DNA of 64,000 nucleotides from Yuukianura sp. NJ FZ-2021 (lineage: Eukaryota), in assembly GCA_046563655.1 (NCBI GenBank), contig CM102284.1, positions 4,526,001-4,590,000 of the forward strand. Reading direction: 5' to 3'. The number at the start of each line of letters is the position of its first letter. The stretch's first letter is position 1. The translations under genes were made by a program, and so were the position numbers. The notes under the pieces are model-generated. The model was not told where the DNA came from, searched no databases, and saw nothing but the letters and a program-made list of their open reading frames with translations. Shown in pieces: positions 10,211-64,000 of this stretch.

Positions 10211-10711
10211 TTTTTTTTTTTTTGATTTCATTTTTTTTTAATTCTTCTTGATTTTTTTTTTTTTTTTTAATTTTAATTATTTAATCTTTTATCAACAACT
10301 ATAATAATGCAGAACTGTATTATAAGTAATAAATTTCATCCAATTCTTTTCCGGGGGTAATAGTTCCGAGAATTGAGGCTGAATTCCCACGTTGGATAGC
10401 TATACTAATTCGTTGTAGAAGGAAGGCGGTTGACTTCGGTTCGCCAGTGTAATCAGTAATACGATGTCCAATGGATTTGATGAGTTTTAAACCTTCGACC
10501 CCGAATACTCCTGATGTTTCCACTGCGATGATGCCCACGATGAATTCATTTTCCAAGTCAGCGTAAAGGTTGTGCTTGTGACCTTCTGCCAGAGAAGCAG
10601 CATGTCCGAAATTCACAGAAGAGGCCTGAAGGTAGGATGAAGCATAGGTATCACGACAGGTGAAATCCCAAGCTAAAGAGCGTCCAGATTTCCAGGGGAT
10701 GAGGGTGACTC
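10211..10711 (-). mobile_element. 5'-truncated non-LTR retrotransposon, CRE-clade-like (C-terminal restriction-like endonuclease region), with poly(A) tail and ~12-bp TSD
   Basis: The minus-strand frame is open 10712-10320: GVTLIPWKSGRSLAWDFTCRDTYA...AAxxAE..K...AVETSGVFG...FLLQRISIAIQRGNSASILGT, the typical CRE-like C-terminus. T-tracts lie at 10209-10223 and 10252-10268. The direct repeat CGCCGTTAGGTT is at 10199-10210 and 10712-10723. Confidence 0.88.
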
Positions 10712-13700
10712 CGCCGTTAGGTTGTTTTTAGGGGAAATGGGTGATGCAAAATTTCTTTTTTCTAGTTTACCTGCAGTTTCTAACCCGAAGGTCTTTGCTT
10801 TTTTTGCAATTGAATTCTTCAATTTAGTTTAAATTCATGGTGAGAGAACGTAGGAATTTTGAAAAGTGCAGGGTAGTTTTTATATTTTTGAATGTTGTTT
10901 AGAACAGGTTGAAAAGGGGGATGTGTGTTGTAGCGGTTGACTGAAAGTGAGTTAATGATTTCCCTTGTGATCTGATGAGGGATGAATTATGACCTGGACT
11001 TTTGTAGTAGAAGGGGAGATTTATCGCTTTCACTCCGTGTTTTCCCTGCCCTTTGTTCCGGGCGCTGATTCATAAGACCCGCTTTTCAAAAAACTTAACT
11101 TAAACCTACCTCCTTTGTAGGAAATTTGCGTGACTTTCACTATCCAATTTGAAATCTATCACCCGAGTCCTCCCTAACTTGTTTCTTTTTTTTCCTTGTT
11201 ACTTTTTTGGAGGGAAGGGAATGAATCAAGAACTGGTACTCGTTGTGGTGGTGGTGGTATCAATATCACAATGAAGCGTGACATGACGGGGTCAAGTTAA
11301 CGAACGAAAGTTCACGCTTGCTTAAACCTCTACTCCAACTCTTGTTTTGGTTCAATACTGCGCTGGAGTATAAGATTTTTCTACTTTTGTGAGAAAATGC
11401 TTTATGATTTTAGTGAAAGTTAACACCTAGTAACTCACGATTAGCAGGAAGTGGTTTTGACTAGGGAATTTGGACCAGGTTTGTATTTTTTTAGACTTGG
11501 TAAAAACGGAAAGTAAAACTCGTGCCGTTTTGATTTTTTGAGATTTGAAAGCTCGTGGCCTTTTCAGTTTTTGAATAAACTGAGTTTAAAAATTTGTGAG
11601 AGCTTGAGTTAAAAAAAATCTTGGCAAGTTTAAGACGATCTCTGGAACAGAGATTTATTATTAGTGGTTGATTAAGTTCATTTGACTTGTTTCACTGGAT
11701 GAGCTGGAGGGAAGTTGCAGCATGCTATGAATGAGGAACTGATTTGGAGTGATTTGCTGACGACTTGTTTTGCACTTCTGGTTGCTGGGTTGTTAAGATT
11801 AGATAGGAAGTGCAGGGTGGGAGTTCTTGACAGGCAGAGATCATCCTTTGGTTGGAAATAGTGATGAGATGACAATAATCTTTATTGATGATGGAGATGA
11901 CTGCGCAGGGTGATGGATGGCTCGAGAGATCTGTCAAGCTTGTTTTGGAAACTGGCTCATTCGGAAACTCATGCCACCAACCATACTATGACACTTGAGA
12001 TCTCTTCATCTCTGCGGTCGACATAAGGTCTAGTGTTAGACCGACGAAGCTCTAGCTAGACATAGCTAGACGAGCTGGATGTGTTGGACCTACCTGTTCA
12101 CAAACAAGCTTGCTTGACCTTGCTAGCTGGTTGGCGAACGACGTCGGTCCAACATACGCGGTTTTCTTGATGGAGGGAGTAACTAGGTTAAGTTGGAGGG
12201 TTGAAAGGATGGTTTGAATGAGTGGTCTGATGGAATTAGCAGCTGAACTCAATTGGCGTTGGTCTTCTGCCATTGTTGTGGAGTGTAAATAGACAACTTA
12301 GGCAGGGCTTTTGTTCTCATCCTTTGTAAACTGAAGCCACATGGACGCGTCTTTTCCGTCACTAGTGATCTCCCTCTTCCCATGCCAAAGATCATCTCTC
12401 GCTCCCACTTCTGAGAGCAAGTTGAATTCATCTTGATGGTTTCATTGGTTAGCCTGAGTAAATAGACAAGGTTCTACACCCAAAAGCAACTGCTCAACAC
12501 CAACCAAATGGTGGAACAATGAGGCTCTCAAAGTGCGGAGGGCGAGCACCATATGAGATCATCTTTTGAAACTGATATTGTCAAAACTACTGTTTAACTA
12601 CCCAACTCACACCCTCATGATATGCAGACAGTCGACATGGTTTTTGAATCTGTTTTTTTGTGTGTGTCTTGTTTCATTTTTTGGAAGATTTCCTAGCCGC
12701 TGATTTTGAAGCATGTTATATTTTTGAAGTTAGACTCAGGCTTAGACGCTTGAGCGAAGTGGTTTCTAATTTGAAGCGATTTGGATTCGGGTTTTGGAAG
12801 ATGGAAGCGTCTATTTACTGAGATCTTGTGGTTGTCAGTCATTGTGATTTTGAAGGCGTCTGTAGGTCCAGAGAAGACGTGGATGTCTGGTTAGCAGTAA
12901 GGAGAGGCAAGCCCGAATTCCTTCGTGTAGAGCGTGAGTACTTGAAGTACCTGAAGAACCTAACAAGACTCTCATCTCGGAATTATGATGAGGGAGGGGA
13001 GCCTTGGAGCTACTGACAGGGCAACGGAGTTTGGCTGGAGGGTACTTGAAGGTTTTTAGGCTTGGTCGTATGAGGGGAGAACCTAACCTAACCGGAGCCC
13101 TTTGTTCACCTGTCGCCTACAACAGGCTCAACTGGGCTTTGGTCTAGATTCCGTCTTTGGAGATGCTAAGGGTCCCGGTCCTTGGAAGGCCTGCAACAGA
13201 TGAATGGAATTCTGGAATGAATCATGTTGCTTGTGTTTTTTTGTTTGTTATTTGACGCGGGAGGAAAATTTAAGACTTCTGGGAAAATGTTCCAGAAATC
13301 TTTTAGAAAGTGCGGATGCTCCGTTCAAAATTTTTCGCAAAATGGAGAAAAGTGCTAGATGTATTGGAAGTTTCCATGTCTTGATGGTATTCATGATTTC
13401 TGTGTATGGTTGGCGACATAACTGTAACTGTGGCGACATTTAGCTTGATTTGGGGTAATTTGAGAAAGGGGGCTGCTGTGCTAGGGAAGTTTTGTATTAT
13501 TTTCAAAGGGAAGCGTCTGAGAAGATGATGGACAGGACACAGAAGTCAATCAGTTTAAGTCCCAGGGCTTGTGAGTCGCTAAAGGGGCGCTTAAGTTGCG
13601 CTTTGTGCTGGATTTTCATGCGAAGGCGTCTGGAAAAATAAACATTTGGGCGATACGATGCACGACGCACGAGACATGATGTATAAACGATTAGTTGACT

Positions 13701-19700: not shown

Positions 19701-21522
19701 TTGGTGTTCACCAACCCATTCAAAATTCAGGTGAGGATTGACAGGTAGAGTGTGTTGTGGTGTTAATGATATGATTTGGGCTCTTCCTGTTTTTGGGTTG
19801 TGATAATGGAAGTATTTGTAAATGTTGAGTTAGGACGTTATGTTGTTTGATGTATGATGGTTTCGGAGAGCGCGAAGAATTGACGTTGGACTTCGGAGGG
19901 GAGGGCGTGCCTAATGACTGCACAATGGCTTCACAGCAGGTTCAACGTTTTCTTCATTCCGAATTTCCAAACTTCTTTTGTACAAGTAACCCTGAAGGAG
20001 GGAAATTTTTACGAGAGTTGACCCATGCCTTCCAGGACCAAAAGCCTAAAGAAGAGAGTTACGGAATTAACGAGCGTCGAATGTTGACCCAGCCTCGGTT
20101 GGAATTGAAAAGTTTATTTTCCATTGTTGTTTCAGTTTCTCTGGAATTCCTTAAAGAGAAACGCATAAAATTGTACAATTTTCTCCGTTTATTGTTAAGG
20201 CATCAGGCAAAACAGGGTATGACGTTTCTTGGCCAAGGTTATGGCTGTTGGAAAAGAAAATTTTCGAAAAGAAAAATTGTAAAAGGAGAAAGTTTCCGGA
20301 ATTGAATTTTTTTTTGGTAATTTTCAATCGAGGCGTTTGAATTTCTCGGAGTTTGCTTTGCTGATGCCAAATTTTGATGATCAGCAGGAACAGAAGCCGC
20401 AAGCTGCGATGTGACCTCAACGACCTCCTTTGTGACGAGTTGAACGTAAAACAAATTGTGAGTCGTTGATTGTAGGTGAATTTGGCAGTGCATCGGGTTC
20501 GATTGTCGCTTCAAGCCAATGTCGTCTGTCATTGTCATGAGTGTCACTGTTAGGGACGTTTGGTTAAGATTTCTGTGACTGTGGCTCTCAATTGCTGTCC
20601 TGACAGATTCAGGCAGAGTAATCGCAGACTGGACTGGCAGGTTTAGAATTTTAGCATCCAACTGCTAAATCAAATGGTTTTTCTTGTGGTGGACCAAAGA
20701 CGCATGAAATAGTGAGAGAGTGGCTGAAGGTGAGGAGGATTGCATGCGGAATATCTAATTGCCTCACCTTGGCAGGTGACAGAGCGTCAAAAACTGGTCC
20801 CTTCATCTAATTCAAAGTGACTCTGTGGTGTCATCTTCACCAGAGACTGGTTGGAGGAATGATGGAACAATTATATGGTGCCTTTAAGCAGGCTTCATGA
20901 CTTCAATCTCACTTCATCTCCAACGCCTCTTCTTCATCTTCCATGTAACCATAAGAAGTGTCACGGAAAATGAAGATGAGTGGAGTCGTAATCGTGATGG
21001 AACTGAATCTGTGAACCATGACCAACTGAAAGTCACTTGGCCACGTCGTCCATTGTCCCACTCTTTTAAAGTGTACTTGAAGAAAGTGGAGATAACAAAT
21101 ATTTGAAAACCACAACAAATTTTCCAGAAGACAAAGTTTTTGAAATCTTTCAATTTAGTGGACTCAAAAAAGTCGTAGTCATTGTCCAGAAACATTGTGT
21201 CAACAGAGTGGAACAATGTTGACAAGTTTGTCGAATTTTTTATGGGAAGTTTATTGCATCTCGAAAATTGTCAAGTTTTTTTTTACTGCAACTTATGAAG
21301 TGGAAATTCTGAAATGCGGATTCAAAAGCCGAGACAAGTTTTAACAATTTTAAGTTTTAACTGTTTATTATGTGCTTAAATGACCGGGAAAGAGAAAGGA
21401 GAATAATAAACCGGTTGTAAACCGCCCATACTGATAATAGCGAAGCAATAGGCCCCCGAAGGATCTGGGTTTGTTAACGGTTTTCTGCCTTTCACCTTCA
21501 GGGGAGTGGGGGTCGCTTAATT

Positions 21523-21678
21523 TCCCCACTTTCCCGGAGCCTTAAACGGTGAGTAGGGGTGTGTTTTCCCGCTTTCCCGCCCCCCCCCCGGGGTAGTGGG
21601 GGTGCGTTTCCCCCACTTTCCCGCCCCCCCCCGGAGTAGTGGGGGTGTGTTCCCCCCACTTTCCCGCCCCCCAGGGGG
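21523..21678. repeat. GC-rich ~43-bp degenerate tandem repeat (CCCCACTTTCCCGCCCCCCCCCGGAGTAGTGGGGGTGTGTT), about 3 copies
   Basis: Visible repeated units with C/G homopolymer runs inside the DINE-like element. Confidence 0.85.
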
Positions 21679-21681
21679 TTT

Positions 21682-21991
21682 TGACAGGTGAGACGTGACA
21701 GCTGAGGCGTGACAGGTGACACCCGGCAAGTGACACTTGAGGGTGGCAGGTGACACGCGGCACGTGACAGGTGACACCCGGCACGTGACAGGTGACACCC
21801 GGCACGTGACAGGTGACACCCGGCACGTGACAGGTGACACCCGGCACGTGACAGGTGACAGGTGACACCCGGCAAGTGACAGGTGACACCCGGTATGTAA
21901 CAGGTGACAGGTGACACCCGGCAGGTGACAGGTGACACCCGGCAATCAACAGGTGACAGGTGACACCCGGCAAGTGACAGGTGACACCCGG
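21682..21991. repeat. Minisatellite, ~21-bp unit CAGGTGACACCCGGCACGTGA with 7-bp ACAGGTG insertions
   Basis: Directly visible tandem array; it explains the repetitive ORFs at 21498-21998. Confidence 0.97.
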
Positions 21992-22408
21992 TGGACACAG
22001 TGCATGAGTGTGTAATGTGTATATGTCAACTGCGTAATAAATTTTTTGCTAAGCAGAGAATCAAAGCCCATGCCAATTGCCTTTCCAGTCTCACAACCAG
22101 AGTTTTTTTTACCCACACTTGCATTACAAATGACCTTTAAAATCGATTTTGACCCGGAAGCAGGTGACCTAGGGTCACACATTACACATAAAAATTGTTC
22201 CCATCGATGAGATGAACAACTTTTGTAGAGGTCATTTTCCATGTTACCGGGATGAAACCGGTTGACCTTGACCTTTGACCCGGAAGGAGTTGACACACGG
22301 GGGTCATATTCAATAGTGAATAGGTCCGGGTCATGACATGGTCACTGGTCAAAACCCGGTTGAAATTGGTCCAATAGTTCCGGAGAAAATCGTTCTAATG
22401 TTTTCCGG

Positions 22409-57917: not shown

Positions 57918-58183
57918 GTAAATCCTATTTTTACTTCATTCATCCTTAAGACAAGACTCGTATACACTTTGGAGAATGATAAAAAATGAAGAAGTTTAGA
58001 CAAATATTAGGAAGAAGGAGCTACAAGAAGTAGTTTTGAGATGACTGGCAAAGATGCGTTTGTCAAAGAAATTACTTCCTTCCCATAAATTCATCTTCCT
58101 TGGGACAAGATCAGAGATAGTAGTGGCAGAAGAGTCTTTTTGACTAATTCTGATATTTATTTTGGCTTCGTGTTCCTAAACAG

Positions 58184-58300
58184 GCATGCCTCCAACATGT
58201 ACCACTCGATCTCGCAAGCTGGGAATCCAGGAGCCTCCTCCGCCTCTGGATTTCGCAACTACCCACCCACCCTGTCAATACCTCCTACGTCAATTCCTAG
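58184..58300 (+). CDS. pan: TCF/pan coding exon: (W)HASNMYHSISQAGNPGASSASGFRNYPPTLSIPPTSIP(S)
   Basis: aacAG acceptor and GTCAGC donor; 117 nt, phase 2 to 2; continues the ASWH motif. Confidence 0.88.
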   Translation, partial: ACLQHVPLDLASWESRSLLRLWISQLPTHPVNTSYVNS

Positions 58301-58391
58301 GTCAGCACTTTCACTTTTTGGAAAATTCTCAAACTACTAAAAATAAACGCGAATTGAAAAAAAAAACTGATGTGTTGAATTTTTTGACCAG

Positions 58392-58511
58392 TGATTTCTA
58401 TAGGTTTCCACCCGGGAGTTTACTCCAAGGGGCGGGAAGTCTAGGGCATCACCTCAGCGGTGTCTCACCAAAACATGACGACCATCCTCGTTCTAGCCAA
58501 AACCATAACAG
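58392..58511 (+). CDS. pan: TCF/pan coding exon: (S)DFYRFPPGSLLQGAGSLGHHLSGVSPKHDDHPRSSQNHN(R); possible in-frame alternative acceptor giving a start at 58404
   Basis: ccAG acceptor (58390-91) and GTCAGT donor; phase 2 to 2; SDF.RF.P.LL resembles Pangolin. Confidence 0.88.
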
Positions 58512-58594
58512 GTCAGTCACAGATCAAACTATGGTTAGTTTAATTTTTAACATTAATTAAAAACTATGAAACTGAAAGTTCTTTTTCATTTCAG

Positions 58595-58674
58595 GTCAAG
58601 TTCAGATTCCAAATCCAATTCGGACTCACATGGAGCCAAAAATTCAGACTCGGGACAATCTATAAATAGTCAAA
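58595..58674 (+). CDS. pan: TCF/pan coding exon, Ser-rich linker: (R)SSSDSKSNSDSHGAKNSDSGQSINSQ(N)
   Basis: tttcAG acceptor and GTAAGC donor; phase 2 to 1, which is needed to bridge to the HMG exon in frame. Confidence 0.85.
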
Positions 58675-58864
58675 GTAAGCTTCAAGCTTTCACTCGACCT
58701 TAGAAAAAGAAAAAGAAACCGAAAAAGTCAATTCAGTTTGGCTTTTTCTTTTGTTCTTTGTCTAATTCCATTTTGGAGCGACGATTTCTCTTCTTTTTCT
58801 GTTTTCTGCGGAAAATCCTCTTTGATTGACTCGGAAGTTTAAGTTGATTTTGTTTCATTTCCAG

Positions 58865-58951
58865 ACGAGAAGAAGAAGCCGCACATTAAGAAGCCTCTCA
58901 ATGCTTTTATGTTGTACATGAAGGAGATGCGGGCCAAAGTCGTCGCTGAGT
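58865..58951 (+). CDS. pan: TCF/pan HMG box exon 1: (N)[28 protein letters not shown](C)
   Basis: ttccAG acceptor; canonical TCF HMG helix-1 sequence; donor GTACGA splits the Cys codon (T|GT). Confidence 0.97.
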
Positions 58952-59047
58952 GTACGAATCCTTACTTTACCCTACGGACGTAGCTTCTATTTTTTTCTGG
59001 AAGTAATTGTTTTAGTAGTAATCGTATCCCTTATTTCTATGGTTTAG

Positions 59048-59094
59048 GTACGCTCAAAGAAAGTGCAGCGATCAATCAAATCCTTGGAAGGCGG
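59048..59094 (+). CDS. pan: TCF/pan HMG box exon 2: (C)TLKESAAINQILGRR
   Basis: tttAG acceptor and GTAAGA donor; invariant TCF sequence; ends in phase 0. Confidence 0.97.
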
Positions 59095-59386
59095 GTAAGA
59101 GACTAAAACTGTAATATCCTTCTTCCTTGTCTAAACTCAATTTGAACTCTCGCGGCCACTTTTCGGTCGCTGGTCACTTTTTTTCAAAGAACTTTCTCCT
59201 TGATCTCTCCCTTGCCTCTCTGAAAGCTTCTAAATTCAACATCATTTTGCACCTTTTTTAAAAAAAGTTATCATGAAACCAACCAGTTCAACTGACCTTG
59301 CCTTGTTCATCCCTTGGAGTTGCAGTCTAAAAAGGCGAAACGTTTTAGAACAAGATTTAAACAGTTTTTGACTCGTATATGTTTAG

Positions 59387-59488
59387 TGGCACTCTCTGAG
59401 CCGAGAGGAGCAGGCCAAGTATTACGAAAAGGCGAGGCACGAACGGCAGCTCCATCTCCAATTATATCCGGGTTGGTCAGCTAGGGAT
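59387..59488 (+). CDS. pan: TCF/pan HMG cassette A, part 1: [34 protein letters not shown]
   Basis: tttAG acceptor and GTAAGT donor; 102 nt, phase 0 to 0; canonical C-terminal half of the HMG box. Confidence 0.96.
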
Positions 59489-59575
59489 GTAAGTTTTCGT
59501 TAGACAAAACAGTGGGAGGTCATTCACCTTTGACCTTGACCTTTTGATATTGATGGAGACTATGTTTTGAAACAG

Positions 59576-59633
59576 AACTATGGCTATGGAGCTAAAAAGA
59601 AGAAGAGAAAGAAAGAGAAAACTTCCGATGGAG
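59576..59633 (+). CDS. pan: TCF/pan cassette A, part 2 (basic tail/NLS): NYGYGAKKKKRKKEKTSDG(G)
   Basis: aacAG acceptor and GTATTG donor; phase 0 to 1; completes SARD-NYG and the basic tail. Confidence 0.95.
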
Positions 59634-60194
59634 GTATTGTGCAATTCATGCGATTTTTATAGAATTTCGACAATTTTTATTTGCTGCAAACATAAACTCA
59701 GAATTTGACCAACCCATCGGTAATCTGCTGAATTTAAAAAAAAAACGAAAATCCGTGTTTTAAAATTTAGAAAATCAGGCCCGTAGGCACAAATCCCTTA
59801 TTTCGCTTGTTGTTCCTTCCGAAGTCTTAAAGTTGATTTTGTTGGTGTTTTTTAGTTTTGTTAAATTAACTTTTTGGTTCTCATTTGGAATTTGGAAATT
59901 AGTGCACAAATGCTCCTTCTGCAGTTTTCGTTTTTCAAGGCACTTTTGAATTAAAAAGGCAGTTAAATCGGGAACTTGAGTTGAATTATGTAAGAAGGTG
60001 CAAAGTGTGAGATTTTTTGAAAACGGATTTAAATAATTTGAGAAAAGCAGCTTTTTTTTAGTTTCCTTTTTCCTGTTTTATTTCCAATTCTTGAAAAATT
60101 GAAAATTCTAAATCGAAATAATTTTGAAGAGTTTGAAGAGACAAAAACGAAACTTTTAGTAAAACATGATTTTGATTTTGATTTGGGGCCTCAG

Positions 60195-60351
60195 TGGCAC
60201 GCACTAGGTCGTGAAGAACAAGCGAGATACTACGATTTAGCCCGTAAAGAAAGGCAGCGTCATATGCAGATGTACCCCAACTGGTCATCTGCCCAAACTA
60301 GAACTCACCATGAAAAGAAGCGGAAGAAAAAACAAGAGAAATTTGACGGAG
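60195..60351 (+). CDS. pan: TCF/pan HMG cassette B (duplicated, alternative to A): [52 protein letters not shown](G)
   Basis: ctcAG acceptor and GTATTC donor; 157 nt with the same entry (0) and exit (1) phases as cassette A; clearly paralogous to A and open. Confidence 0.93.
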
Positions 60352-60549
60352 GTATTCAGAACTTTTGATACAAAATTTTGACAAAAGTGAAGTTTTTTGA
60401 CTATAAGAAAAATTCACCTAAAACTGAAATCAAATCAAACTTTTCTCAAAAATAACCGATGGGTTTGTGAATTTTCTGAGTTGATGGATGGATATGGTGG
60501 TGGTGTTGGAAATCAATTTAAGTGTGTAAATTGACTTTCTTTTTCACAG

Positions 60550-60619
60550 GAAATAGCATGAAGAAGTGTCGAGCTAGGTACGGGTTGGACCAACAAGCTC
60601 AGTGGTGCAAACCGTGCAG
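60550..60619 (+). CDS. pan: TCF/pan C-clamp exon: (G)[22 protein letters not shown](R)
   Basis: ttttcacAG acceptor and GTAATA donor; phase 1 to 2; CRARF-like and WCxxC motifs. Confidence 0.97.
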
Positions 60620-62119
60620 GTAATAAATCATGCCTCTAACAATAGAATTTTAGTTACAATCGCTCCAAACGGAACTTGCGCTTCGGAAATGAAAGTAACA
60701 CTGGTGCACTTTCAAAAGCCTAAAATGAACAAGTGAACTTTCATTATTCTCTGCATAAGTGCAACTAGTTCAGAATTTTTTGCTGCTAGAACGAAACTAT
60801 TTATAAAAACTAACAGGATTTTGAAGTGAAAGCAGAGAAAGAGGTGAACGCAGAACTTTCTGGGCGAAGTTGTGACTTACGAAAGATTCATTTTCTACTA
60901 GAAACTAACCGAATGCAGGTTTTACACTAACAATTTCCTTAAATGATTTTCGGTGTGAGAAGACACGAGCATTTCTAAAAGTTGCTTTTACTGGGTGTGA
61001 TTTATACAATGAAATTGAATTTTTAGTTTTGAAAAAATCATAAGCTTTGTTTAAAATGCTTCTACTTTCTCTTTTCTCTTCTTTTAATTGTTGTTGGTTG
61101 CGATTTACATGAATTGATTTCAATACGGAACTATGACCTCCGCAATTATTTTTCAGCATGCTCTTCGTTTGCAAATTGGAAATCTTAAAAGTTGACATTT
61201 AGTTTTGATTATTAAAAGAAAGTTGAATTAGTGTGGACGTTGGTTGGATTTAAAAACGACCACTTTTAGATTTAACCTTAGAAAAATATGAAAGTATCGT
61301 TTTCAGAAAATGTGTCTTCCCACATTCCTCATTTTTAGTATATTTTTTGAGTGCTTTGAAGAAGTATTGTTAAAAGTTGACAAGGAGAAATTGTGAAAAG
61401 CAATCAGCCAATACAGTACAAAAAAAAGTTAATTTTGAACTTTGTTAATTTGATGCATGTTTTGCTCAACTTTTTCCGCGGAATTTCGTGGAGAGACGAA
61501 GAACTTTCGTCAGCTTTGTCATGAAATTTGACAATCAAGCAACTTCCATCCAGCACCTCTGTTTTTTTTTGTTTTGAAAATTTATTATTTCAAATGTCGC
61601 TTTGGGTTTGACTTTTTTTCACTTCTACTGGCATGACACATTTTCTGAAGATATTACGTGCCGTTTCTAACTCCTCAAATTGTGCAAATCACCTTTTGAC
61701 ATTTTTGTGACAAAAAAGTTAGATTTTCGCTAACTTTAAGTTTCTCTTCAGTTTTTTAGTTGAGTATTGGGAACCTCTGTAGAAATAATTTCTGGGATCT
61801 GTATTTGGCATGTCACGAGCTTTGTAGTTAGTACTGATTACGTTGACTTTCACCACTTTGCATTTGTGGGTGAAAAGTTTTAGTTTTTGCATGTTTCTCA
61901 CTTCTGAGTTATTGCTACCGTGACTTGGGCAGTTTCCTTGTCCGTGTCTTCTACAATACCAAGTCTGAAATTAAAGTTAACGTTTAGACAGACCCCGGAA
62001 TTAAGTTAACTAAATTGACATTAAGTTGATCACTTTTTCAATCGTTCCTGGATACTAAAACTAATATGTGCTGTATTGGCTTGGTTGACTTTTTAATTTT
62101 CCTTGCTCATGCTGCTCAG

Positions 62120-62477
62120 TCCGGATCAAGTTCAGTCGACGGCTCTAGCCTCTCTCGGTGGAACCGTTTTGAGTTACATGACTGGAGTTGGTGGGGCCAG
62201 CTCCACCTCTAGTATCCCATCGACTTCTGGTGCCGGAAGCACCCATAGTAGTGGTGGGGCTTCAGCAAGGGGCAGTAGCATTGGTGGCCCTTCTTCGTCA
62301 ACTTCTAACAATAGTTCCGGCGGGGCACTGTCCCACCACCATTCTCAGCACCAGCACAACTTGATGGGAATTTTAGGCTCTTTGGCCTCGGCAGCATCCC
62401 ACCAGGGGTCACTGTCCCACTTAAGTCAAATCCCAATTTCATCACCCCTTCCTGAACCGACTTATGTCAACCTATAG
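62120..62477 (+). CDS. pan: Putative alternative terminal exon of TCF/pan: (S)PDQVQSTALASLGG...HHHSQHQH...PLPEPTYVNL*
   Basis: ctcAG acceptor at 62118-19 after a pyrimidine-rich tract, in phase 2 with the C-clamp exon. GC-richer, coding-like Ser/Gly/His-rich open frame ending in TAG at 62475-77 inside otherwise AT-rich intron. Confidence 0.7.
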
Positions 62478-63067
62478 CCACTTGCCCGCTGCCCCACCTC
62501 CATTTTATTTTCCCACGCGTCTGCCCCGTCTGGTTCCAGTCCCACTTGGTCCCACTTTTGAAAAGTCCTGGGGCAAGTGGGCTTCTTCAACGGATTCTAG
62601 TCAATATTTTGTCAAAGTTTCCCGATTTGTCTTCCTTTTAAAGTCATCTTCCTTATCCTTGATGTTTGAAATCCTAATTTTTGTTTGAAAAGAGTCTGCC
62701 ACTGCTGTGATAAATCACATCATTCGTAAATTTTAACGTATAAAACCTAAACCATTTGCCAAATTTGGAGTCCTCTAAATTTCCTGGAAGGTACGGCGAA
62801 TTAAGATTTTTTCGGTATAGGTTCTCTCGTTTCTTGTTTTTGTTGTGCTCGAGATTTTTTCGGATGATCTTTCTTGAATAATTTTTCTGGACTTCTTTCT
62901 TACATTTTAGTTCTGAGTTTACTAATTCTTCTAACACAATTGTTCAAAGCATGCGCATGCACGATTCAGTTTTAGGATAACGCTATAATCTATCGGAGAC
63001 TTAGCAATTTTAAGTATAAATGTAGAATGTTTAAAAATAGTATTTACGAAGTTGTTTGTATTTTCAG

Positions 63068-63270
63068 GCGGAAAAAGAAGTGTATTCGGTACATGGAGGG
63101 TGAAGGTGACGGTGGAACGGGCGGCGGTAGTCCCGATAACATAGGTTCGGTAGGAAGCGGCGGAGATCCTCTGTCACCAGATTCCAAAACTGGACTCGAT
63201 TCTGACATGGACTGTGGAAAGTCCTCCGATCTTGCAATGTCAAGTCCGAATTTTAGCCTCACGTCACCCG
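63068..63270 (+). CDS. pan: TCF/pan exon completing the C-clamp: (R)RKKKCIRYMEGEGDGGTGGGSPDNIGSVGSGG...SLTSP(G)
   Basis: ttttcAG acceptor and GTAATA donor; phase 2 to 1; RRKKKCIRY motif. Confidence 0.96.
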
Positions 63271-63345
63271 GTAATAAAATCTAGCAATATTTTGTTTTGC
63301 TTTTTAGCCAAGAAGTAAACTGTAACGAGTTTTATTTGAAATTAG

Positions 63346-64000
63346 GAATGTCGCTGGCGTCTCCAGGGATGTCACTAAATTCTCCTGGTATGTCGCTTCC
63401 CTCTCCAGCGATGACGTCACCTTGTCCCTCCGGCCTCCTGCAGTCGCCGGCGAGCTTAGCAAGTCCTGCCGTAAGTCTTCCTAGTCTCCAGTCACCGTTG
63501 ACACCGTGTCTCGACGACAGGCATGCCATATCCTCCGTTGGATCCTCAGCAAGTTCCTCCCACAAAAACACGTCCAACAGTCACCACCACCACTCCACAT
63601 CAAATCACATCTTCACCACAAATTCTTCTTCGTCGACCACGCCTTCCTCATCCTCCTCGACGTCACCACCAATGTCATCTCTCATCCTTGGACTTCACTC
63701 TACCTTTAACCCCAACTCCAGCAGTAACAGCAGTAGTCATCAAAAACAGCACGGTAGCAGCAATCCTTTCGGGCCATTCTTTGGAGCTAATGGAACATTT
63801 CCTGGACTGGCTGGACTGAGTCTCAGTTTCAAAGGCCCACATCGAAGTCCCGTGGGAGCCAATCCACATGACATCAACAATCCTCTTAGCGTCAATCAAC
63901 TGACGAATAACAACAATAATCACCACCATCACAACCACACGACTTCCAGTATTAAACGGAGTAGTGGCAATTCCAGTTCCAGTAGTCTTACTTCCAAGAC
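63346..64000 (+). CDS. pan: TCF/pan C-terminal tail exon, open to the window end; SPGMSL repeats, His/Ser/Asn runs, PVGANPHDINNPLSVNQLT block
   Basis: attAG acceptor; phase 1; I found no stop in this frame through 64000. The GANPxDxNNPLS block resembles a conserved invertebrate TCF tail motif (recalled, not searched). Confidence 0.88.

Follow-up and report, generated by a model that had tools for sequence, protein, structure and literature searches.

The second half of the HMG box of pangolin, the single nuclear effector of insect Wnt signalling, is present twice in tandem, as exons A and B, in the 64,000-nucleotide stretch of genomic DNA analysed here (the window). How is one copy taken into the mRNA and the other left out? 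The host gene of the pair is pangolin/TCF, with exons from about 5840 to the window end. Upstream exons were traced back to that point by tblastn; the first 60 residues of the protein were not found in the window and probably lie outside it. Two springtails, Allacma fusca (90%) and Folsomia candida (79%), provided the dTCF models that exon B hits best, and the window species is accordingly read as a springtail. Exon A1 matches residues 41-74 of 2LEF (E 2.9e-16), in keeping with an HMG box of the LEF type and the basic tail behind it. The C-clamp is complete with four cysteines, encoded by 60550-60619 together with the exon starting at 63068. The exon upstream of the pair ends at 59094 and all introns are GT-AG. 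The coordinates and phases claimed by the first-pass annotation (A of 160 nt and B of 157 nt, both entered in phase 0 and left in phase 1) are exact. A and B are homologous, near-equal in length and identical in phase, as expected of mutually exclusive tandem exons (Table 1). Besides these exons, the window contains a 135-codon frame on the minus strand inside a long intron (10323-10727), which presumably resembles the end of a retroelement-type protein, a G+C-rich tandem repeat region in a long intron (21500-22050) and a steady positive GC skew of the transcribed strand over the long introns (1-56000).

Table 1. Exons and pairing elements of pangolin/TCF in the window; the roles given for pairing arms are predictions.
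Feature	Coordinates	Strand	Remark
HMG box first half, two exons	58865-58951 and 59048-59094	+	96-nt intron between, absent from relatives
X, 5' arm of stem I (would loop out A)	59243-59258	+	sole word of at least 10 nt in that intron common with L001
Exon A1, HMG helices 2-3 up to ARD	59387-59488	+	102 nt
Gained phase-0 intron within exon A	59489-59575	+	87 nt; A unsplit in 14/14 hexapod loci containing it
Exon A2, NYGYG linker, basic tail and spacer	59576-59633	+	58 nt
5' arm of helix V, A2 end and A donor	59617-59643	+	pairs with 59902-59929
Y, 5' arm of stem II (would loop out B)	59711-59721	+	
Z, arm of helix IV, encloses B acceptor	59799-59811	+	pairs with exon B 60217-60229
3' arm of helix V	59902-59929	+	
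X', 3' arm of stem I	59992-60007	+	
Exon B, alternative helices 2-3, tyrosine-less linker, basic tail	60195-60351	+	157 nt
Internal in-frame acceptor of exon B	before 60208 (AG at 60205-60207)	+	CAG-type YAG
Y', 3' arm of stem II	60455-60465	+	
C-clamp exon 1	60550-60619	+	three of four cysteines
Outer conserved stem before alternative last exon	60954-60968 with 61943-61954	+	springtails
Inner conserved stem, 15 bp	61302-61316 with 61635-61649	+	nested in outer
Alternative last exon ending EPTYVNL	62120-62478	+	C-clamp cut before fourth cysteine
Exon completing C-clamp (RKKKC)	63068-63270	+	

The duplication is old. A1 agrees with the opening 102 nt of B at 61 of 102 nucleotides and 21 of 34 residues, and only 6 of the 19 degenerate codons for shared residues are the same, which argues for its age. 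A tandem A then B was found in gene models of springtails, a mayfly, a cricket, cockroaches, stick insects, a louse, a psyllid, beetles, moths, a wasp and malacostracan crustaceans; the chelicerate proteins returned have a single ARDNY-type copy each. Phylogenetically, window B and insect B form a clade (support 99/97), and crustacean and hexapod copies showed no resolved grouping in a tree on 49 columns. An old duplication with alternative HMG exons in Drosophila pangolin had been proposed in the first-pass annotation, and this is borne out by Drosophila melanogaster isoform Q, which has B. Two such exons were reportedly described in the 1997-98 cloning papers of dTCF/pan.

RefSeq and FlyBase proteins have A or B; isoform Q (NP_001245405) represents the B form and D. 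mauritiana X3 the A form. Leaving out the barnacle, nine clusters list 69 members, of which 58 have exactly one copy, none has both, and the 11 with neither are fragments. Both forms were found in 8 species among the listed members. Taken alone, the exclusive use of A and B, read from annotated isoforms of relatives, is very likely. In 36 other two-copy proteins the copies are 58-225 residues apart with unrelated filler between them, and these look like prediction or assembly artefacts. Three further records have unusual arrangements. In the barnacle Amphibalanus (P0212-P0225) there is a separate 22-residue partial duplicate of the start of the helix 2-3 region, which 6 of 14 listed members include in frame ahead of the complete exon. 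In the aphid-like L003 (764-1483) B runs without a break into both C-clamp exons and the 3' end, and the intron before B is present; this contig is either a partly spliced transcript or a case of intron loss. Protein P0009 has A-form and B-form HMG/C-clamp regions in tandem on one short contig, each cleanly joined; here two isoforms of a beetle-like gene seem to have been assembled into a chimera.

Can the reading frame account for this exclusivity? In silico, a transcript with just one of the two copies has an open frame across the C-clamp. The two dead ends foreseen in the first-pass annotation hold as well: A1-A2-B meets a stop at once in B when the normal acceptor is used, and skipping of both copies shifts the frame to an early stop. 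Because A1 ends in phase 0, the joins of A1 to B and of the upstream exon to A2 are in frame, and A2 joins B in frame at a second AG inside B (join at 60208). These three in-frame leaks mean that frame alone cannot enforce exclusivity in the window species. Thus, the mutual exclusivity claimed earlier stands for a tandem, old and exclusive pair; its enforcement by frame alone does not. Two classical explanations were rejected. The intron between A and B, at 561 nt, is probably too long for steric hindrance to be the cause, and the donors (GTAAGA, GTAAGT, GTATTG and GTATTC) do not resemble the U12 consensus, so that U2/U12 incompatibility does not apply.

Two of the leak routes are a consequence of intron gain. 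Among 40 fetched loci, 19 have a hexapod-type B and 14 of these include A. None of the 14 has a split A, and all six loci that show the first half of the box have it in one exon; the introns at 58952-59047 and 59489-59575 are therefore lineage gains, and the latter, which leaves A1 in phase 0, created both routes. Intron 58952-59047, inside the HMG helix region, opens with five bases that recur at the start of the following exon, a trace that a repair- or insertion-type gain would be expected to leave. An origin of both gained introns from a repeat was rejected since no long copy was present in the window or the loci, and intron 63271-63345 was rejected as a gain since L001 has a break at the same place. 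TGACCT repeats lie within the gained intron of A (59526-59544). This stretch has a 15-nt match at 22262-22276 of the window and a 12-nt match just past the A donor of L002 (1786-1797), and it can also pair with X' (-16.4 kcal/mol).

The introns around the pair suggest a different device. Those of the window and of the springtail-like locus L001 hardly align apart from short blocks. Exact shared words of at least 10 nt number 1, 5 and 2 in the three introns (shuffle means 0.2, 1.3 and 0.13), and six of these eight words are helix arms. At the junction of A2 and the A donor 37 nt are identical between window and L001. All seven blocks tested had another block or an exon arm as best partner, compared to 16 of 120 random 13-mers; these blocks, which cover six of the eight shared words, were picked once the helices had been seen. 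The elements follow the order X, A, Y, X', B, Y', with all of A enclosed by the predicted stem I and B by the predicted stem II, and consequently the two stems cross. Helix V is nested in stem I and has the same shape in L001; helix IV is nested in stem II. Part of Y could also take part in a weak pairing with A1 (59470-59480), but the probability of this alternative is about 0. A search of Rfam over 58000-64000 gave no match.

Sequence changes within the arms are few. All 11 core pairs of stem I are kept in the window, L001 and L002, with one two-sided and one one-sided change, and the single two-sided change in helix IV falls in an alanine codon, where it is synonymous; these counts come from only three springtail loci. 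The stem II sequence in L002 differs from that in the window and L001, so no column-wise covariation is seen in this stem. Synonymous differences from L001 are lower in B (0.43) than in A (0.80).

The best helix between flanking introns was compared with 300 dinucleotide shuffles in the window, L001 and L002. Around A (stem I), 3, 1 and 0 shuffles were as strong, and around B (stem II) 3, 0 and 0, compared to 70, 153 and 219 for a control pair of outer introns. For helix IV, 1/40, 2/40 and 16/40 shuffles were as strong, the value for L002 not being significant. The energy of helix V was not beyond shuffles in the three loci (5/60, 10/60 and 45/60 as strong). Folding linked the helices to one another: forcing stem I brought 6/7 core pairs of helix V in the window, and forcing stem II brought 13/14 pairs of helix IV in L001. 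In folds before B is transcribed, stem I had a mean pair probability of 0.65 in the window and 0.96 in L001, and stems I and V were favoured in both. The global optimum contained stem II in the window, where stem I lay about 20 kcal/mol above it, and stem I in L001, these 1.4-1.6 kb folds being rough. A further helix, III, hardly forms in folding and was rejected as a main element.

Based on this layout, the A/B choice in springtails is probably set by competing long-range pre-mRNA pairings of the bidirectional type described for serpent. We infer that the stems form in vivo and steer splicing. In the B state, pairing of X with X' would loop out A1, the new intron and A2 together, and helix V would aid stem I by covering the A donor. 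In the A state, pairing of Y with Y' would loop out B, aided by helix IV over the start of B. As stems I and V cross II and IV, the two sets should not coexist. Double inclusion through the normal acceptor, or double skipping, would lead to an early stop and nonsense-mediated decay as a back-up.

In insects, support for this layout is partial, and the full two-stem arrangement was found in springtails only. A related stem enclosing B, with one-sided changes, is the top helix in L004, L005 and L017 (2/60, 2/60 and 2/40 shuffles as strong), and L015 and L018 have a different, perfect 16-bp helix around B; in L017 and L018 the outer-intron control pair is itself significant. In L005, L017 and L018 a conserved stem just past the A donor encloses the 5' arm of the B-enclosing stem, in the same order as helix V in springtails. 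The six termite-like loci are 97% identical and therefore uninformative for covariation. A stem enclosing A is clear in one of five insect loci (L014, 0/60; others 36/60, 12/60, 19/40 and 4/40).

This last result would fit an explanation in which splice-site competition, protein regulators and decay make the pair exclusive, the blocks being protein-binding sites with incidental complementarity. In addition, both A and B tracts are 3n+1 long at every locus measured, so that decay can police the pair. However, the blocks pair with rather than resemble one another, the helices show compensatory changes and species-specific extensions, and the A1-B and upstream-A2 joins of the window species are not excluded by frame. 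We consider this explanation unlikely.

A second possibility is that the pair is not strictly exclusive and that the acceptor 13 nt into B yields a third protein with two tandem helix-3/basic-tail modules. The A2-B join at this site is in frame in the window, and of three Allacma models two, P0003 and P0057, use it for an in-frame junction of A with B. Codon 4 of B is CTA or TTA in 7/9 lineages, giving an internal AG in 6/9 compared to 5/36 at other leucine sites, but codon 4 of A is likewise CTA or TTA in 4/8 lineages and the difference is not significant (p 0.33). Moreover, the internal site lies directly behind the main AG, and the junction occurs in just 2 of 237 fetched proteins, both from one annotation, although it had served as a query. 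Such a protein is accordingly improbable. That B is a silent or decaying duplicate in the window species is hardly credible: three substitutions in window B (positions 11, 14 and 22) are absent from eight other lineages, but its frame is open, its splice sites are intact, pN/pS is 0.10 against L001 and 0.07 against L002, its linker is identical in two further records with different intron sequence after it, and Allacma model P0056 contains B only.

The corresponding values for window A are 0.10 and 0.15, all being uncorrected proportions. The check on selection suggested in the first-pass annotation thus gave pN/pS of 0.04-0.10 for B among three springtails and no sign of decay, and by this measure exon B is under strong purifying selection.

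What the choice between A and B would change in the protein was judged from alignments. The first-pass annotation had suggested that B may alter the spacing to the C-clamp. Spacing to the C-clamp has been proposed to constrain site geometry, according to the available part of PMC4154663. Here, the basic tail starts 11 residues past the conserved Trp in both forms and A is one residue longer; with a difference of one residue only, spacing was rejected as the main A/B effect. The divergence of B in helix 3 and the linker, also claimed earlier, was confirmed for the linker. In the helices, part of the difference comes from A: hexapod A mostly has S, K and Q at positions 3, 15 and 18, where B has A, L and R and is nearer to LEF-1. 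Judged by sequence, most of the difference between the A and B products lies in the linker from helix 3 to the basic tail.

In that linker, the tyrosine of the ARDNY motif, six residues past the conserved Trp, is present in 17/17 distinct hexapod A copies, 17/17 other ARDN-type copies and 4/4 malacostracan second copies, and in 0/21 hexapod B copies. This distribution indicates that hexapod B has lost the tyrosine. The matching tyrosine of LEF-1 presumably contacts the minor groove. The loss makes the effect on affinity or bending envisaged for the B linker more specific. In the accessible text of PMC4999783 the basic tail contributes to binding and bending, and in that of PMC9771472 how long the SRY/SOX complex persists depends on the box-tail junction. 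From this, an altered DNA affinity or residence time would be the likeliest effect, probably tuned through the tyrosine-less B linker.

A second set of conserved stems precedes the alternative last exon. All 15 pairs of the inner stem are present in the window, L001 (3767/4231), the termite-like L005 (7877/8226) and the wasp-like L018 (9446/10308), with one two-sided and one one-sided change across the four. Its 5' arm (61302-61316) could instead pair with 60954-60968, likewise a conserved block. Across hexapods the last exon has a variable middle, an SP start and a PTYVNL end, and TYVNL or a like motif ends 46 fetched proteins.

In insect pangolin/dTCF the same exon pair occurs in the same order and phases as in the window. 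There, A lacks the gained intron that splits it in the window, and the springtail B linker is one residue longer and without the SSR arginine. The closest likeness of the pairing layout is Drosophila serpent exon 4, described in the available part of PMC4691838 as two exons with four intronic elements (one upstream, two between, one downstream) and two crossing stems, which mutation showed to steer exon choice. Window and L001 fit this element layout, each crossing stem enclosing one exon. Unlike serpent, pangolin would have extra helices over the A donor and at the beginning of the B coding sequence, and one of its alternatives is a two-exon unit; its duplication predates the springtail-insect split, compared to about 80 million years for srp, and its stems are known here as predictions whereas those of serpent are mutation-proven (PMC4691838, same part). 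In the 3' variable regions of PGRP-LC, CG42235 and Pip, competing pairings activate a proximal acceptor and mask a donor (PMC6191721, accessible text). These may be a precedent for helix V as well as the stems that precede the last exon of pangolin, although they concern duplicated cassettes and the last exons of pangolin are not mutually homologous. Splicing of the E, S and M tails of vertebrate TCF7/TCF7L2 likewise yields a whole or truncated C-clamp; the variation there, in the available part of PMC4999783, lies after the basic tail and is not an exchange of half an HMG box.

A full-text literature search, with subscription papers and some supplements beyond its reach, returned nothing on the pangolin exon pair or its RNA structure, and nothing on the LEF-1 tyrosine under the name Tyr75. 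Pangolin/TCF is absent from the main texts of PMC6191721, PMC11802352, PMC4691838 and PMC6071210, the last two of which have genome-wide supplementary lists that might include pan, and from four supplementary files of PMC2724269. The accessible portions of DNA-binding studies of fly TCF do not mention an alternative HMG exon. Taken together, the exon pair is already known, and the predicted pairing layout, clearest in springtails, is probably a further case of the bidirectional-pairing class.

If so, a mechanism established by experiment for only a few genes would gain a very ancient example. An exclusive exon could tolerate the gain of an intron because the stem encloses both pieces. The mapped elements give exact coordinates at which the gene might be locked in A or B, and both DNA-binding domains compared in vivo. 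As a more tentative idea, which we hold to be possible rather than probable, the hexapod pangolin pre-mRNA may carry two old RNA switches, one for A or B and one for a whole or truncated C-clamp, giving four DNA-binding modules, with B, which lacks the tyrosine that TCF/LEF proteins otherwise have, recognising different Wnt response elements or a looser set of them. If this is true, insects with one TCF gene would do part of the job for which vertebrates have four.
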